From Candidatus Saccharimonadota bacterium (GTDB lineage Bacteria > Pseudomonadota > Alphaproteobacteria > Rickettsiales > Anaplasmataceae): a DNA stretch of 32,000 bases. The stretch covers positions 180,001-212,000 of the forward strand of contig CP085695.1 of assembly GCA_029715105.1 (NCBI GenBank), in the 5' to 3' direction. Position 1 is the first letter of the stretch, and every line of letters begins with the position of its first letter. Of this stretch, positions 5,147 through 12,118 are shown in pieces. Made by a program: the position numbers and the translations under genes. The notes below the pieces were generated by a model. The model was not told the DNA's origin. It searched no databases and saw nothing but the letters and a program-made list of their open reading frames with translations.

Positions 5147-7516
5147 TTAGAAAGAAAATTTTACACCGGTCAGAAAAAGACCTCCTTCTTCTTTATTAGA
5201 AGAGAGGTTTACCTCTTGGTTATATTTTTCTACATGATTGTTATCTCGTTTTTCTTTACTTGTAAAGTAATGAAAGACTGCATACGGAATGAATTTACTT
5301 TTACTATAAGCTGGAGAGAGATCATATTGAATGCCAAGTGCAATATCATGAAGTTTATCTCCATCGTTCATCTTACTACTAAAATATGTTAAACTTGTAT
5401 AAAAATTCTCATACTGGTAACCAGCACCAGCAGTCCAATAGGTAATATTTTCACTATTAATCACAAGTTGATCCAGTATATTAGTTTTCTTATCAGGCTT
5501 ATGAAAATTATCATGATCAGCTTCTCTTAGATGTTCTTCGGCAATTTTTGATTGACCAGACTTACCTAAATATGCAAAAGAAGCAGCGAACCTTATGTTA
5601 TGATCTTTATTTATCATATAGTCAGCGCTAACACCAAGATTAGTTCCTATTAAATCATTGTGTTCAAATTCTTTGTAAGAATGTTCGGTATCTAGTGTTT
5701 TTGCCTTACCATATTCCCCGACTATAGAAGTTTTAATTTTTATATTATTTTGATTGAAATCATACTCATATGATGCACCCGCACTTATTATATGTTCATA
5801 ATCTGGACCAATATGTCTTGCTAAGTCTGTTATACTTTTTTCATATATCATTGTATTTATGGCCTTTTCGAGAAATATTTCTTTTATTTTTGATTTAATA
5901 TCTACAGCTGAAAGTCTTGTGTTTAAAAGTTTACTCACTGCTTCTTTTAGATCTTTAACAAATTTATCTTTGCTACCACCTGTTTCATTAAGAGATGGTA
6001 TTTTATTTATGAGTTCGTCTTTCATTGTATTCTTACTTTCAAGAACTGTTATATCTGTAACATCTACAGCAGGAACAGTGTTTGTTTTGTGGGTTTCATT
6101 GTATTTGGTAGGAAGAATTACAGTAGTTACATCAATTGCGGGTAAGATTTTGTCGATTATTCCGACAAGAGCTTCATTTTTTTCAGTTTGGGTAGCGGAA
6201 TTACCAGTAAATTTTACATTTTTGACTAGGTCGTCAATTGCTTCGTCTGCTGACTTATATTTTTTACCATCAATCTCGACTTTATTATTGAATCTAAATT
6301 TACTAGCGTTAATGAGTTTAGTAGTAATAATGTCAATTTCTTCTTCAGAAGGGTTAGTATTTATTATACCGTTATTAACATTAGTATTATTAATATAGGA
6401 TAGGCTATTTTCATAGCGAGGTGAATAACTGATACCAAATTTTGCACCCATGTAGTTCGGTGAGTAGTAAGCAATTCTAAATGGGAGCGTAGTTATAGTG
6501 CTTTTGTTATATTTTTCTGCTATGCTAAAAGAAAGCTTTTTACCTCCATTCGAGAAACTTTCGGTATAAAGACGTGGAGTTACATAAAATGGAAATGTTA
6601 AAGCTTTTTCTTTTAAATTTGCTTTTCTAAACCAGTTGCTATCTGCAGCCCCATCAATAGTTGCGATTTTTGTTGCATCAAGTCTCATTAAAGCTTCAGG
6701 ACCAAATTGATAACCAAATCTTAAACTACCATATTTTGAATCCAAAAATATATGTGCATTTTTACTTTTTCCCGCGTTTATATCTTGCAAAGTTCCCATA
6801 TTTTCAGTAACAGGAACGTGGAATTGTATATCAGCGCCATAAAGAATACCAATGCTTTCATTTTTATTTTCAGCTCTCAAATGTAATACTGTATCTGTAA
6901 TCATGCCCATGTTTTTATAATCATCAACACTTCTTACTTTTTCTAGAAACGATAATGGACTTATTTTTACAGAGGTATTATCATTATTCAATTTGACATC
7001 ATGTGATTTATGATTTTTATTACTTAATTTTAATTTATTATAACTTTGGGTGTCGATAACACCACTAAAAGTAATTTTTAAGTCACTTGTCTTTTGATTA
7101 ATGCCAGCAATATTAACACTATTAGTAATTGGAACAATTGGATTGGTTTTATTTTTTTCGTTAATTCTATTATTGATAATTTTAGTTTTGATTCCAGATT
7201 TTTTAATTTTATAATTTTCAGTTTTTAAAGTTTCTACGTTAGAATTTTTATTTTTAAGAACTTTTGCTTTTTTTATTAATTTTATTGTTTCTTTTTTTTT
7301 ATCAAGTTGTTCCATAACAGGATCTAGTTTTAAATTTGTATTACATACTCTTTTTATTTTGTCTTTTAGTTTTCTATTTTGTGTTTTTAAAACTTCTATT
7401 CTTTTAGAAATTGCTGCGTTATCTTGTTTTTCATAAAAATCAGCAGTAAAGCCACTGAAAGAACATAAAGCTAGCAAAGAAGCTAGAGCAGTTTTAGTAT
7501 AGGTAGATTGTTTCAT
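5147..7516 (-). CDS. Outer-membrane beta-barrel (porin-like) protein with N-terminal coiled-coil extension and a large internal insert
   Basis: 789-aa ORF with a Sec signal peptide (KTALASLLALCSFSGFTA). A Lys-rich helical region follows. Alternating-hydrophobicity strands resemble alphaproteobacterial porins (GAKFGISYSPRYEN, YWTAGAGYQYENFYTSLTY). The C-terminus ends in Phe (LTGVKFSF), as is typical of beta-barrel outer-membrane proteins. A GGGGGA Shine-Dalgarno-like element lies 8 nt upstream of the ATG. Confidence 0.6.
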   Translation of the reverse strand: MKQSTYTKTALASLLALCSFSGFTADFYEKQDNAAISKRIEVLKTQNRKLKDKIKRVCNTNLKLDPVMEQLDKKKETIKLIKKAKVLKNKNSNVETLKTENYKIKKSGIKTKIINNRINEKNKTNPIVPITNSVNIAGINQKTSDLKITFSGVIDTQSYNKLKLSNKNHKSHDVKLNNDNTSVKISPLSFLEKVRSVDDYKNMGMITDTVLHLRAENKNESIGILYGADIQFHVPVTENMGTLQDINAGKSKNAHIFLDSKYGSLRFGYQFGPEALMRLDATKIATIDGAADSNWFRKANLKEKALTFPFYVTPRLYTESFSNGGKKLSFSIAEKYNKSTITTLPFRIAYYSPNYMGAKFGISYSPRYENSLSYINNTNVNNGIINTNPSEEEIDIITTKLINASKFRFNNKVEIDGKKYKSADEAIDDLVKNVKFTGNSATQTEKNEALVGIIDKILPAIDVTTVILPTKYNETHKTNTVPAVDVTDITVLESKNTMKDELINKIPSLNETGGSKDKFVKDLKEAVSKLLNTRLSAVDIKSKIKEIFLEKAINTMIYEKSITDLARHIGPDYEHIISAGASYEYDFNQNNIKIKTSIVGEYGKAKTLDTEHSYKEFEHNDLIGTNLGVSADYMINKDHNIRFAASFAYLGKSGQSKIAEEHLREADHDNFHKPDKKTNILDQLVINSENITYWTAGAGYQYENFYTSLTYFSSKMNDGDKLHDIALGIQYDLSPAYSKSKFIPYAVFHYFTSKEKRDNNHVEKYNQEVNLSSNKEEGGLFLTGVKFSF

Positions 7517-7550
7517 GAAATATCCCCCAAAATCAAACGTTATATTTTGT

Positions 7551-7578
7551 ATAATAGCACAAAAATGCTAAGATTCAA
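7551..7578 (-). promoter_or_regulatory. Candidate sigma70-type promoter for the outer-membrane protein gene
   Basis: On the minus strand the sequence reads TTGAAT, a 16-nt spacer, then TGcTATTAT (an extended -10), about 35 nt upstream of the ATG at 7516. In such AT-rich DNA, matches of this quality arise by chance. Confidence 0.3.
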
Positions 7579-7998
7579 CTTAAGGCGGTTTGCCTAATTA
7601 AATAAAAGTAGAATTCAACATTTTAAGAATAAATTTGTGCCTAATACTGTTTTAGTGTAGTATAAGGGCTTGTACTTTGCAAGTATCAAAATAAAATTAT
7701 TTAAATAATCTAGTGTAATATTTTGATAATGAATCTTTTAATAAAGGTTTCAATACTATTATTGATTTGTTAAAAATCTCATTTTAATGAATAAATTTTC
7801 TTTACCTTTAAAGGTATTGGGAATTATTTAAACAAATTTTATTAAATAAGGTTAATATAATTTTATTTTATAACATTCAAAGTTAAGAGTAGAAGAAATA
7901 ATGATATAAGAAAAGACCTATTTTGTATATGTAAAAATTAGGAAGTATTCAATAAAATATGTGCATTAATTGCAGATTAATTAAATTAATGTTATGAA

Positions 7999-8763
7999 TT
8001 AAATTAGAAAATTATCTATTAATGTAGTTTTTCCTATTCGGATTGAGCCATATCTTCTTCCGTTTATTTCTTCTATGTAGTTAACTTTAAAGCCTAACTT
8101 CTCAAGTTCGATTTTTATTTGATTAGATGAAAGTTGCTTAGATGATAATAATAATGGAAAATTCTTTGCTAAGTTTATTTGTTTTTTGTTAAGATTTCTA
8201 TTTCTAGAACTTAATGCAATTCCGTTTTTATCTCTAATGGTAGGACACGGAATAATTTCCGTGTTAATAAAAAAAGCTTCTTTCATTCCTTTAATTAATT
8301 CATACTGTTGATAATCTTTTTCACCAAAATAAGCTTTATTTGCTCCTATAATAGTAAGAAGTTTTAATACCACAGTTAGCATCCCAGTAAAATGACCCGG
8401 ACGATATATTCCTTCTCTTACTAAACTAGTGTTATTTTCTATCACTTTATAACGAAATCCGTCAGGATATATATCATTATGTGTTGGAATGATGACTGCG
8501 TTTACTTTTTCACGCTCAGCTATTTTTAGATCTTCTGATATTGTTTTTGGATAATTTTCATAGTCAGATTTTTCAGAAAATTGGGTTTTATTAATAAAGA
8601 TGCTCAAAATAGAAAAATCGTTTTCTAAGACTGATCTTGCAATTAAGCTGCAATGACCTTCGTGTAAACAACCCATTGTTGGAATAAAACCTATGGTAGT
8701 GTTATTAAGTAGAGAGTTTTTAAAAGTTTTCCATTCTTCTATCAAGTTAAAAATTTTTAACAT
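7999..8763 (-). CDS. panC: Pantoate--beta-alanine ligase (pantothenate synthetase)
   Basis: 254-aa ORF with the signature N-terminal nucleotide-binding motif GFIPTMGCLHEGH. The downstream blocks (GEKDYQQ, SSRN) are typical of PanC. Confidence 0.9.
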   Translation of the reverse strand: MLKIFNLIEEWKTFKNSLLNNTTIGFIPTMGCLHEGHCSLIARSVLENDFSILSIFINKTQFSEKSDYENYPKTISEDLKIAEREKVNAVIIPTHNDIYPDGFRYKVIENNTSLVREGIYRPGHFTGMLTVVLKLLTIIGANKAYFGEKDYQQYELIKGMKEAFFINTEIIPCPTIRDKNGIALSSRNRNLNKKQINLAKNFPLLLSSKQLSSNQIKIELEKLGFKVNYIEEINGRRYGSIRIGKTTLIDNFLI

Positions 8764-8832
8764 GTGTATTTTTGATAATTTGTAGTATTTTTATATTAAA
8801 ATGTATAACACGCAAATAAATATTTAGAAATT

Positions 8833-9708
8833 TTATTTTATATCAAAAGTTTTGAGAAGGTTTTTGTTAAAAGAAAGAAGTTTTTCTATATTTTTATTAT
8901 ATTGGTTAGAAATCAACTTTAAACCTAGTATCCTATACAAGACTAGTAATGATGGAGTGGATTTTAAAAAATTAATGTGATTTTTTATTATATTTATATC
9001 GCCTCTCTGTATTGGGCCGGTAATAGACATGTCGAGGGATCGGCATTTTTTGATATTTGTTAGGGTGCTCGAAGATAAACTGTGAATAATATCTAGGATG
9101 TATTCTTTCTTTACGCCTGATCTATAATAAAGATTATATGATATCTTTAATAATGAGATTAGATAATTTGAAGCAAAAATGTTTCCTATGTGATATGAAC
9201 TTTTTGTTTTCCGGTTAATTTTAAAAATTTTTGCTCCAATTTTTTTGCAGAGACGTTTTATGACTGAAAAAGCTTGTTTGTCACCTTCGTAGGCACAATA
9301 AGTTCCCTTGAACGTACTAACGCTTATTTTAGGATCTGCAAAAGATTTTATGGGGTGTAATGATCCAATAAAACACCCCATCTCTTTTGCGGAATATAAA
9401 GCCCCTGAGTTTAAAGTACCACTAAAATGAATTACAATATCTCCTCTTGAAAGTTTTTCATGGTTTACTAGCGTTTGACAGACGTTAGAGATTAGTGAAT
9501 CTTGTGTTGATATTAACCATAAATTAGACCTTATTAATTCTTTGTAATTTTTACAAGCATAACCCATACCTATAAACTTAATAGCACTCTTAGAAGAAGA
9601 AAAACTTTTATTTAATATTCCTTTGATGTCGCAATTAGCTTTTTTTGCTAAAAGATATCCAATTGTCTTTCCTACTTTTCCACATCCTATAATAGAAACT
9701 TTTTTCAT
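8833..9708 (-). CDS. Rossmann-fold plus DUF2520-type oxidoreductase; putative ketopantoate reductase (PanG-like) by context
   Basis: 291-aa ORF with an N-terminal dinucleotide-binding motif (KVSIIGCGKVGKTIG). The blocks SLHPIKSF, YHIGNIFASNYL and ITGPIQRGDINIIKNHINFL match my recollection of the Rossmann+DUF2520 family. It sits between panB and panC on the same strand. No panE or ilvC is present in the window. Confidence 0.6.
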   Translation of the reverse strand: MKKVSIIGCGKVGKTIGYLLAKKANCDIKGILNKSFSSSKSAIKFIGMGYACKNYKELIRSNLWLISTQDSLISNVCQTLVNHEKLSRGDIVIHFSGTLNSGALYSAKEMGCFIGSLHPIKSFADPKISVSTFKGTYCAYEGDKQAFSVIKRLCKKIGAKIFKINRKTKSSYHIGNIFASNYLISLLKISYNLYYRSGVKKEYILDIIHSLSSSTLTNIKKCRSLDMSITGPIQRGDINIIKNHINFLKSTPSLLVLYRILGLKLISNQYNKNIEKLLSFNKNLLKTFDIK

Positions 9709-9907
9709 ACATTTTATATTATATATATCTATTTTAAAAGATTACTAATCTTATAGTGTTTAAAAATTATTATTCAATTAAAAAAGTAGACAAAGTGATT
9801 GTATATAGTTTTCTATGTAAAATAAGAATCTTATATTTTTATTTTATTTTATATTTTTGCTATTTAATAAGGTGTAAGTTTGTATGTTAAAAAGCATTTT
9901 ATTTTTC

Positions 9908-10696
9908 TTAATAAGAATGATTGTCTTGTGGAAATATTCCAGTTTTAATTTCGTTATCGAAGTTATTTAAAGCATTTCTTATTAATTGATACCCATTTAA
10001 ATAAGTTTTGAGAAATTTGGGGTGAAAATTATGATTCATACCCAGCATATCTTGTAACACTAATATTTGTCCAGATACACTAGATCCAGCTCCGATACCA
10101 ATCGTGGGAATTTGCAGCTTTTCTGTTATTGTTTCAGCCAATTTCATCGGGATGCATTCGAGTACTATTGAAAAGCAACCAGATTTTTCTAATTCGATAG
10201 CTGATTGAATAATTTCTTTAGCTTCATTTTCTAGTTTACCTTGTACTTTAAATTTTCCAAAATGGTTGATATGTTGAGGCATTAATCCCAAATGTCCCAT
10301 TACTGGAATACCTGACTCAACTATATGGGAGATTAATTTTAAATTTCCCTTTGCACCTTCTATTTTAATCGCGTGAGCACCGCTTTGTATAATTTGTAAT
10401 GCATATTCAACAGTATCTCTTAAACTTTTTCTAAATGATAAAAATGGCATATCCCCAATGATAATTTTGCTTTCCGCTCCTTTTGAAACTGCATTTATAT
10501 GAGTGCACATTAAATCTATAGTTGTAAACGTAGTATTTTTATAACCATGCATTATCATGGCCAAACTATCTCCAACTAAAATAGCATCTATATTTGTTGT
10601 ATCGATAATTTTTGCTAACCAATAATCATAACAAGTAATCATACTAATTTTTTGTGATGTATTTTTCATATTTTGAAACTTTAGAATATTTGTCAT
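9908..10696 (-). CDS. panB: 3-methyl-2-oxobutanoate hydroxymethyltransferase (ketopantoate hydroxymethyltransferase)
   Basis: 262-aa ORF with diagnostic PanB blocks: KISMITCYDY, AILVGDSLAMIMHGYKNT, IIIGDMPFLSF, IKIEG and GHLGLMPQ. Confidence 0.9.
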   Translation of the reverse strand: MTNILKFQNMKNTSQKISMITCYDYWLAKIIDTTNIDAILVGDSLAMIMHGYKNTTFTTIDLMCTHINAVSKGAESKIIIGDMPFLSFRKSLRDTVEYALQIIQSGAHAIKIEGAKGNLKLISHIVESGIPVMGHLGLMPQHINHFGKFKVQGKLENEAKEIIQSAIELEKSGCFSIVLECIPMKLAETITEKLQIPTIGIGAGSSVSGQILVLQDMLGMNHNFHPKFLKTYLNGYQLIRNALNNFDNEIKTGIFPQDNHSY

Positions 10697-10861
10697 ATTT
10701 GTACCAAATCTTATATATTTTAAGAATAAACTTTACATAATGAAATTAATTGGTTATAGCATGTCAAGATAAAATTCGTTATTTAGTTTTGTTAAGTATT
10801 ATAAAATGACGACCGTAATTTTGGATTTCTCTAGATGAAATTTTATTTCACTACAAAATTT

Positions 10862-10889
10862 TATTTTACCCAAATATTTTACCCAAATA
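10862..10889. repeat. Tandem direct repeat, 2 x 13 bp (TATTTTACCCAAA) plus a partial third unit
   Basis: Read directly from the sequence: TATTTTACCCAAA at 10862-10874 and again at 10875-10887, followed by TA. An imperfect related copy (AAATTTTATTTCAC) lies just upstream at about 10838-10852. The repeat is 166-193 bp upstream of the panB start codon. Confidence 0.6.
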
Positions 10890-11581
10890 AGAGTGGTATT
10901 TTCTTCTAAGAGAGTTCGTTTTATGTTTGTTATATGATAAAGTTGATTTTATTTTGTAATAATTTTATTTGATTAGGATTGTCGTTTTTATTTATTTGTA
11001 ATTATTATATAATTTTTATAAAAGTTTTTATAACTTTCTACAAAATCAAGTTTGAAAATTTGTGCTTAAATTTATAATTAATTAATAGGAGAGTAAATTA
11101 AAAATTTGTAAATATAATTTAAAATAATAATGAGATTTCTTTCTTTTGTTTATATTAATTTTGTTTTAAGGGGGGGTAGTTATTAATAAGTAGAAAGAGT
11201 TTTGACATTTTATAGTGTTGTTATAGGAATTTTAAATTATATTTGTTTTGTTTTATTTTATTTTGTATGTAATATATTTACGAGAATAATGATAAAATTT
11301 AATAATTAAAGTGATATCTGATAATGATTTTTAATAGAATTTAGATTCTATGTGTTTTAGTAGTTATTGAATAGGTGAAAAGTTATATTTTAATAGTTTT
11401 CATTATTTTAGTTTGAGGGTGATAGGAGTTTTCTTCTATCTCTTAGTAGGATGGTAGTTTTATCCGTAGGTGTTCCCCTATGGAGTCGTATGTATTGTAT
11501 GTGTAAAGATATAGAAGTTGTTATCAATTGTTTAATTAATTTTACTGTATGATGAATGTGAGTGTTTTTTTAATTTGTAAT

Positions 11582-12118
11582 TTAATTTTTAATTCTACTT
11601 TCCAACTCTAATTTAATTAGAGTATTGATTCTATCGATGTTATTAAGAAAATCTTTGCATTCTTTATTACTATATTTTTTGCCAGACGCCTTTTTTTCAA
11701 TAAAGAACTTTTTAAGTTTTTTTATATCAGTATTTTGATGTGTACTTAGTACAATATTTTTTTCTACAAAACTAAGATCTGATAGCAGTAAACTAACTTC
11801 TAGTAAATCATTGCTTTTAATCTTTGTAAGATTATCAAGATTGTTTAATATATCGAATACTTTGAATTCTTCATGAGCAATCTTTTGATCTTCTTTATCG
11901 AGTTTAGACAATAATTTTTTGTTATTTGCAAATTTCTTCTTAAGAGCTTTATTAATTTTTAAAAGATTAATATCATCTTGTTCAACACTATCAAGTAATA
12001 AGTTTACTTTTGCTCTACGTGCGTTTATGATATCATTATAGTTGTTTAATTTTAAATTACCGTTTTTGTCTAAATATAATCGATAATAATTAAAACCTTT
12101 AAAGTTTTTCGTTTTCAT
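11582..12118 (-). CDS. Hypothetical Lys-rich, predicted helical protein encoded 56 nt downstream of the last VirB6 paralog
   Basis: 178-aa ORF on the same strand as the T4SS operon. It has no signal peptide or transmembrane segment and no motif I recognise. Composition is heptad-like and charged. Coding status is supported only by ORF length in a stop-rich AT-rich background and by its position. Confidence 0.5.
   Translation of the reverse strand: MKTKNFKGFNYYRLYLDKNGNLKLNNYNDIINARRAKVNLLLDSVEQDDINLLKINKALKKKFANNKKLLSKLDKEDQKIAHEEFKVFDILNNLDNLTKIKSNDLLEVSLLLSDLSFVEKNIVLSTHQNTDIKKLKKFFIEKKASGKKYSNKECKDFLNNIDRINTLIKLELESRIKN

Follow-up and report, generated by a model that had tools for sequence, protein, structure and literature searches.

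A three-gene pantothenate cluster in a louse Wolbachia genome as the probable remnant of a mobile five-gene island

The stretch of DNA analysed here (the window, 32,000 bp) comprises bases 180001-212000 of the one 733,850-bp contig of a single-contig, 97% complete genome with a guanine-cytosine (GC) content of 28.0%. At positions 7999 to 10696 it carries a compact cluster of pantothenate (vitamin B5) synthesis genes: panB, a panG-type ketopantoate reductase candidate and panC. The genome matches the closed genome of wMeur1, a supergroup F Wolbachia from the chewing louse Menacanthus eurysternus. Its cluster is a trimmed, three-gene form of a five-gene island that is found in other Wolbachia strains, without the amino-acid dehydrogenase gene and panD that complete the island there. 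We consider it very probable that the cluster is the still functional remainder of a mobile pantothenate island which came from outside Rickettsiales, and that its product is made for the host.

The cluster is already known, having been published in 2023 for the very same sequence. Mahmood et al. (2023, Microbiome 11:22; PMC9903615) have described the closed 733,850-bp, 28% GC genome of wMeur1, obtained with Illumina, PCR and Nanopore data from a metagenome which also contained a second Wolbachia strain, and reported that wMeur1 is fixed in its host and lives in bacteriocytes. They found the panB-panG-panC triad to be horizontally acquired and sister to that of Wolbachia wCfeT, with ilvE and panD missing in the symbiont and present in the louse. 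In their supplement, the middle gene appears as “Ketopantoate reductase PanG” (RAST), with an eggNOG assignment to Legionellales, and the next match after wCfeT is a Coxiella sp. metagenome-assembled genome (MAG; RIFCSPHIGHO2). Ours is the same object: it has the same three genes and the same closest relatives (our own searches return wCfeT, then Coxiella sp. RIFCSPHIGHO2), and it invites the same interpretation of horizontal gene transfer with host-encoded panD and ilvE. The cluster is a leading genomic clue to an obligate nutritional mutualist Wolbachia, housed in bacteriocytes, that came about through gene gain, a significance which is likewise in the literature. What we add are approximately unbiased (AU) tests against the pan genes native to other Anaplasmataceae, a comparison of the cluster with the five-gene island, a search that detected no remnants of the missing genes, and the loss of coaD and coaE.

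The wMeur1 cluster and the five-gene island

The features of the cluster are, in the direction of transcription of its genes and followed by the gap upstream of them:

9908..10696, reverse strand: panB, 3-methyl-2-oxobutanoate (ketopantoate) hydroxymethyltransferase, 262 amino acids; PF02548, TIGR00222, NF001452
9709..9907, no strand: 199-bp spacer, 15% GC; position of panD in wCfeT, wCori and DFT4; no PanD remnant
8833..9708, reverse strand: panG-type ketopantoate reductase candidate (Rossmann-like + DUF2520), 291 amino acids; PF10727 + PF10728
7999..8763, reverse strand: panC, pantoate--beta-alanine ligase, short form, 254 amino acids; PF02569, TIGR00018
10697..11581, no strand: 885-bp non-coding gap upstream of panB, 21% GC; position of the amino-acid dehydrogenase gene in other strains

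An earlier, sequence-only reading of the window had described three co-oriented genes for the pantoate branch and the final ligation: the open reading frames (ORFs) prove to be exact, and the Pfam and NCBIfam scores confirm the families. That the composition of the cluster is ameliorated, as the same reading held, is also borne out, with 28-30% GC in the pan genes and 28.0% in the genome.

Searches of 60 Wolbachia species genomes returned panB in four: wMeur1, wCfeT (1,495,538 bp), wCori (CP116769) and the MAG DFT4. Protein searches added the Wolbachia of Aleurodicus dispersus as a fifth carrier, and the nearest homologues of the pan proteins are those of wCori, wCfeT, a Wolbachia sp. MAG and the Wolbachia of Aleurodicus. 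The unit in wCfeT, wCori and DFT4 is ordered ELFV-family amino-acid dehydrogenase (336-351 amino acids), panB, panD (119 amino acids), panG, panC. The wMeur1 cluster resembles this island (PMC9894559, PMC10438800) in its orthologous PanB, PanG and PanC (66-79% identity, with PanB 79% identical to that of wCori) and in gene order and orientation. It differs in having neither panD nor the ELFV dehydrogenase, and in a GC content of 28-30% rather than 33%. The fifth island gene lies as follows:

L007 (wCfeT) 10383-11429; L008 8460-9515; L009 3224-4234: ELFV-family amino-acid dehydrogenase, upstream of panB

The best NCBIfam match of this dehydrogenase is the ScyB model (Leu/Phe/Trp-dehydrogenase-like), at a score below the cut-off. 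Judging by this similarity, the enzyme could make alpha-ketoisovalerate from valine and thereby feed PanB.

No trace of either missing gene was found in wMeur1. The sequence-only reading had noted that panD is absent from the window, and this holds for the whole 733,850-bp genome, in which neither PF02261 nor tblastn with Wolbachia PanD found anything. Remnants of panD and of the dehydrogenase gene were sought by tblastn (word size 2), by blastn (word size 7) and by running hidden Markov models built from the Wolbachia proteins against six-frame translations; neither the 199-, 885- and 482-bp gaps nor the genome at large gave more than AT-rich noise. The gap at 10697-11581 contains no ORF of at least 40 amino acids, no Rfam family and nothing similar to the dehydrogenase gene, and Rfam, tRNA and small-ORF scans of 7400-11700 were empty. 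The wMeur1 genome also does not contain ilvE.

The genes that flank the cluster both belong to Wolbachia-specific families:

5147-7516: WD0745-type porin, Wolbachia-specific family
11582-12118: WD_0853-family protein, Wolbachia-specific family

They bear out the earlier description of the genome as Rickettsiales-like. The WD_0853-family gene is followed by the virB6x4-virB4-virB3 operon of the type IV secretion system, so the pan cluster is a neighbour of the secretion locus. The sequence-only reading had pointed to this adjacency, and the position stands (a virB3-virB4-virB6x4-WD_0853 block), but any meaning of it does not: the adjacency looks best read as incidental, and has no detectable meaning because the context of the island differs in each strain. 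The wCori island lies among ankyrin and RadC prophage cargo, in the eukaryotic association module (EAM) region of the WO prophage (PMC10438800), and that of DFT4 is near pyrF. In wCfeT (L007 7323-19165), the immediate neighbours of the island are, on one side, IscS-like and EamA-transporter genes with the BOOM biotin operon (from bioB onward) and, on the other, IS66 transposase and Bro-N genes; the arrangement looks like a composite “vitamin island”. The wMeur1 context, a virB6/WD_0853-porin junction, is unlike those of the wCfeT and wCori islands. A synteny search for the insertion site found virB6-WD_0853 kept in five relatives, none of which has the porin or ArgRS within ~11 kb, and the porin/WD_0853 junction is for this reason a rearrangement breakpoint rather than a clean insertion site.

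The three encoded proteins

The middle gene encodes a 291-residue protein composed of a Rossmann-like domain (PF10727, E 4e-10), with a GxGxxG motif at G8-G13, and a DUF2520 domain (PF10728, E 1e-26); it matches no NCBIfam model. It has no ApbA match (TIGR00745, or PF02558 with PF08546) and is not a PanE, in agreement with the sequence-only reading, which had called it a Rossmann and DUF2520 oxidoreductase of neither PanE nor IlvC type. A canonical panE elsewhere in the genome would have offered another enzyme for the step, and none was found: genome-wide, the only ApbA-like match is GpsA, and no ketol-acid reductoisomerase (KARI, IlvC) was detected. The DUF2520 gene is single-copy and the sole ketopantoate reductase candidate. 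Conserved columns are here those alignment positions that are 95% or more conserved among the 34-41 homologues from outside Wolbachia used for each protein (41 for PanB, 34 for PanC). The PanG candidate keeps 27 of its 29 such columns, and both changes are common to all Wolbachia copies. An AlphaFold2 model of the protein has a predicted local distance difference test score of 92, and the top folds found with it are the DUF2520 structures 2i76 and 3d1l, followed by pyrroline-5-carboxylate (P5C) reductases, imine reductases and KARI. Such a fold is compatible with a reductase that uses NAD(P)H to act on a 2-oxo or imine compound.

DUF2520 proteins have been linked to the PanG enzymes FTT1388 of Francisella and EF1861 of Enterococcus, and PanG homologues have been noted in Coxiella and its tick symbionts, which do not have panE (PMC4572677, PMC4684696, PMC4494066). 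The sequence-only reading had pointed to this family link to Francisella PanG and to Coxiella, and these papers state it. The closest named relatives of the PanG candidate outside Wolbachia are from Coxiellaceae and Legionella, with 37-42% identity. Among 17 DUF2520-bearing genomes that we checked for an alternative ketopantoate reductase (3 Wolbachia, 12 Legionellales and 2 others), PanE scores above cut-off in none and a true KARI is present in just one, while panB is present in all but one.

The DUF2520 protein might instead have another oxidoreductase role, in which case a different enzyme or the host would provide the pantoate. No curated functional model exists for the family, and its fold is as much like P5C and imine reductases as it is like KARI. 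The gene is also not adjacent to panB or panC in most non-Wolbachia genomes, and because it is mostly found away from them, a ketopantoate reductase role is not established for the entire DUF2520 family. We nevertheless consider a different role quite unlikely. In the wCfeT, wCori and DFT4 islands the gene is kept among the pan genes, between panD/panB and panC, and it has been retained in a genome of 0.73 Mb; moreover, wMeur1 and 16 of the 17 DUF2520-bearing genomes have neither PanE nor IlvC, and PanB is encoded in nearly all of the 17. Nor are animals known to make pantoate. For FTT1388 and EF1861, the ketopantoate reductase role is backed by published genetics (cited in PMC4572677, PMC4684696, PMC4494066).

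The outer two genes score as members of their families. PanB matches PF02548 (E 8e-101) and scores above the cut-offs of both TIGR00222 (292.6 bits, cut-off 207.55) and NF001452 (340.4 bits, cut-off 272). It keeps 46 of 48 conserved columns, including D43, D82, K111, E113 and E180, which, as in E. coli PanB, would be of the metal-binding or catalytic type; the two changes are V250I and G148K, and G148K is common to another Wolbachia. PanC matches PF02569 (E 1e-68, 231 bits, cut-off 20.7) and keeps 42 of 43 conserved columns, including H34-G36-H37 and S185-S186-R187-N188 of the HxGH and SSRN motifs. Its TIGR00018 score is marginal (214.7 bits, cut-off 212.75), the margin being slim because this model was built on the long PanC form. 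The TIGR00018 match ends at position 213 of 283, and a truncation of PanC was considered for this reason; it was ruled out, as more than 100 PanC homologues have 251-258 amino acids and the ~254-residue form is a populous class.

A further possibility is that the cluster is a relic: the non-functional, decaying remains of an island of prophage cargo, in which the loss of panD and the dehydrogenase gene marks ongoing erosion. Two of the five island genes are indeed gone, and long AT-rich gaps lie on both sides of the cluster and within it. No expression signals are recognisable: no Shine-Dalgarno sequence is visible for the three pan genes, the terminator scan was empty for the cluster and for the sequence immediately following it, and the promoter scan was uninformative (36 promoter-like sites, with 31.8 expected). 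PanC has in addition a D88N change (window 8500-8502) at a conserved column, unique to wMeur1; this column is Asp in the 34 non-Wolbachia PanC and in four other Wolbachia PanC. Against this, the three ORFs have kept their full length in a genome stripped of nearly all that it could do without, PanB, PanG and PanC together retain 115 of the 120 family-conserved columns, and the PanG model is a confident one. The two lost steps are, furthermore, those reported as louse-encoded, and wMeur1 is fixed in its host and found in bacteriocytes (PMC9903615). Taken together, these observations make a relic very unlikely, and favour a cluster that is functional.

Origin of the island

In maximum-likelihood trees, the Wolbachia sequences form one clade for each protein (support 100/97 for PanG, 100/99 for PanB and 100/100 for PanC). 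The PanB clade includes two sequences, and the PanC clade one, from short contigs of public sequencing runs. The closest relatives outside named Wolbachia are P0066 and P0067 (PanB), P0185 (PanC) and P0006-P0008 (PanG), some of which are inside the Wolbachia clade; they may come from additional carriers or from a lineage close to the donor. PanC is in a supported group with Legionella and Coxiellaceae (95/83) and PanG in a weakly supported Legionellales group (85/82). The Wolbachia PanB falls into a polytomy with Coxiellaceae, Chlamydiales, Oligoflexia and Melioribacteraceae.

PanB is not rare in the order as GTDB broadly defines it, being present in 231 of 400 Rickettsiales genomes, and two other Anaplasmataceae genera have it. 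In these genera, the native panB is scattered from a long-form panC, and DUF2520 is absent in 7/7 genomes. A native panB and long panC without DUF2520 were seen in G119 and G365 (genus g6) and in G207, G246, G258 and G386 (genus g8); in G346, panB and panC are broken. The proteins of other Anaplasmataceae are 38-42% (PanB) and 33-35% (PanC) identical to those of Wolbachia. AU tests reject a joint clade of the Wolbachia and native Anaplasmataceae genes for PanB (log-likelihood difference 150, p 7e-87) and for PanC (log-likelihood difference 72, p 4e-4).

These results bear on vertical retention, in which the pan genes would be ancestral to Anaplasmataceae or to Wolbachia and would have been lost in nearly all Wolbachia lineages. 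Consistent with it, other Anaplasmataceae genera carry panB and panC, the GC content of the cluster equals that of the genome, and between strains the identity is lower for the pan proteins (66-79%) than for VirB4 (86-88%), so the presence of the pan genes is not recent. We reject vertical retention all the same, because the AU tests exclude the joint Anaplasmataceae clade. The scattered native genes, their long PanC and the absence of DUF2520 likewise count against it, as does the absence of panB from 56 of the 60 Wolbachia species genomes, which include the closest VirB4 relatives of wMeur1, and the relationships among the islands deviate from those of VirB4. We therefore hold retention to be highly improbable; by these comparisons, the pan genes are demonstrably not the native Anaplasmataceae ones. 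The sequence-only reading had left the choice between retention and lateral acquisition to phylogenies of the three proteins. It is the acquisition that they favour, through the Wolbachia-only clades and the placement of PanG and PanC among Legionellales rather than with the native genes, together with the AU tests and the occurrence in 4/60 genomes. The island thus appears to have originated outside Rickettsiales, and the donor we infer is most likely a Legionellales-like intracellular gammaproteobacterium.

Within Wolbachia, the nearest VirB4 relatives of wMeur1 (90-91% identity) do not have panB, and the pan carriers rank only 43rd to 52nd (86-88%). The pan identities (PanB/PanG/PanC) are 90/80/91% between wCfeT and DFT4, as opposed to 78/69/79% between wCfeT and wCori, and do not track VirB4. 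This is suggestive of a spread of the island between Wolbachia strains, as seen with VirB4 as the single marker, and agrees with the location of the wCori island in the WO prophage.

An assembly artefact, in which the cluster of another louse-metagenome bacterium was mis-joined into the Wolbachia contig, has a next to negligible probability: the source metagenome did contain a second Wolbachia strain, but the cluster has Wolbachia-specific genes to either side on the same contig, its GC content equals the unusual 28% of the genome, the genome was closed with Illumina, PCR and Nanopore data (PMC9903615), with long reads spanning 5147-12118 arguing against a mis-join, and orthologous islands are present in three other independently assembled Wolbachia genomes.

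Fate of the product and known counterparts

From the observed gene identities and gene absences, we infer the following enzyme activities and direction of metabolite flow. PanB would hydroxymethylate alpha-ketoisovalerate to ketopantoate, the PanG-type DUF2520 protein would reduce ketopantoate to pantoate with NAD(P)H, and PanC would join pantoate and beta-alanine. In the full island of wCfeT, wCori and DFT4, a Leu/Val-type dehydrogenase would give alpha-ketoisovalerate from valine, and PanD would give beta-alanine; wMeur1, having lost both genes, would depend on the louse for the two compounds. The sequence-only reading had expected beta-alanine from the host or from a gene elsewhere in the genome. 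The host is the option that stands, as panD has been reported in the louse (PMC9903615) and none was found in the wMeur1 genome.

We wondered whether wMeur1 could itself use the vitamin. The whole-genome search that showed panD, panE and ilvC to be absent found no PanK I, PanK III, CoaBC (DFP), CoaD or CoaE either, and tblastn with Wolbachia CoaD and CoaE returned no remnant in wMeur1. Among the other Wolbachia species genomes, CoaE is present in 58/59 and CoaD in 59/59, and wMeur1 is alone among the 60 in having no trace of coaD or coaE, a few reduced genomes keeping broken copies. In three reduced Wolbachia genomes of 0.9-1.0 Mb (G008, G020 and G045), the coaD and coaE matches are fragmentary or contain in-frame stops. 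Decay of this tail of coenzyme A (CoA) synthesis seems to recur in reduced Wolbachia. G029, a genome of ~0.6 Mb from the same GTDB genus (one contig, 93% complete), is without panB and keeps coaD and coaE; it has no VirB4 match at E <= 1e-100. Five other Wolbachia genomes checked (wCfeT, wCori, DFT4 and two further strains) likewise lack PanK III and CoaBC.

CoA-dependent enzymes are still encoded in wMeur1, for example an E2 acyltransferase at 64-1257 of the window. Because no PanK, CoaBC, CoaD or CoaE is recognisable, wMeur1 cannot turn its own pantothenate into CoA, and it follows that the product goes to the host and that CoA or dephospho-CoA must return. Pantothenate would in this exchange be exported to the louse, and CoA or a late precursor (dephospho-CoA) imported back. 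We therefore think it reasonably likely that wMeur1 is a one-way pantothenate producer in a metabolic loop with the louse, and that the gain of the B5 island was coupled to the loss of the CoA tail. The symbiont would have kept the three genes that the insect cannot replace and dropped the dehydrogenase gene and panD, whose products the host can supply. If this is true, gaining the island and losing the CoA tail would be linked stages on the way to an obligate nutritional symbiont. For a symbiont unable to use the vitamin, provisioning of the host is the only coherent role, and this predicts an import of CoA or of a late precursor. CoA, coaD and coaE are not mentioned in the main text of PMC9903615 or in the supplements examined; this detail is possibly new, though it extends the published picture rather than adding a new kind of system.

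Several points weigh against a functional island remnant that serves the host. The activities of all three proteins are predicted from sequence. The 291-residue protein is a candidate for its role, linked to FTT1388 and EF1861 via the literature, and belongs to a family whose gene mostly does not adjoin panB or panC. No promoter, Shine-Dalgarno sequence or terminator is recognisable at the cluster, and the D88N change affects PanC in wMeur1 alone. The PanG tree has a weak backbone, the composition of wMeur1 is deviant, and the polytomy around PanB leaves several candidate sources for this gene. Finally, a search for type II PanK (Fumble) was empty, but its positive control was also blank.

The closest counterpart of the middle gene is Francisella tularensis FTT1388, reportedly identified as the PanG ketopantoate reductase by Miller et al. 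in 2013 (J Bacteriol 195:965). According to the secondary literature, FTT1388 has the same Rossmann and DUF2520 architecture. As in that case, the Wolbachia gene sits with pan genes and is the sole ketopantoate reductase candidate of a genome without panE and ilvC. The likeness to FTT1388 is drawn from published descriptions, and the function of the Wolbachia protein is a predicted one.

At the level of the symbiosis, wMeur1 is most like Riesia pediculicola, the symbiont of the human louse as described in PMC9903615: there too, the symbiont gives panB, a reductase and panC, while the host gives ilvE and panD. Compared by description, the two differ in that Riesia is a gammaproteobacterium with plasmid-borne genes, whereas wMeur1 is an alphaproteobacterium that carries the same division of labour on its chromosome, in genes acquired by horizontal transfer.

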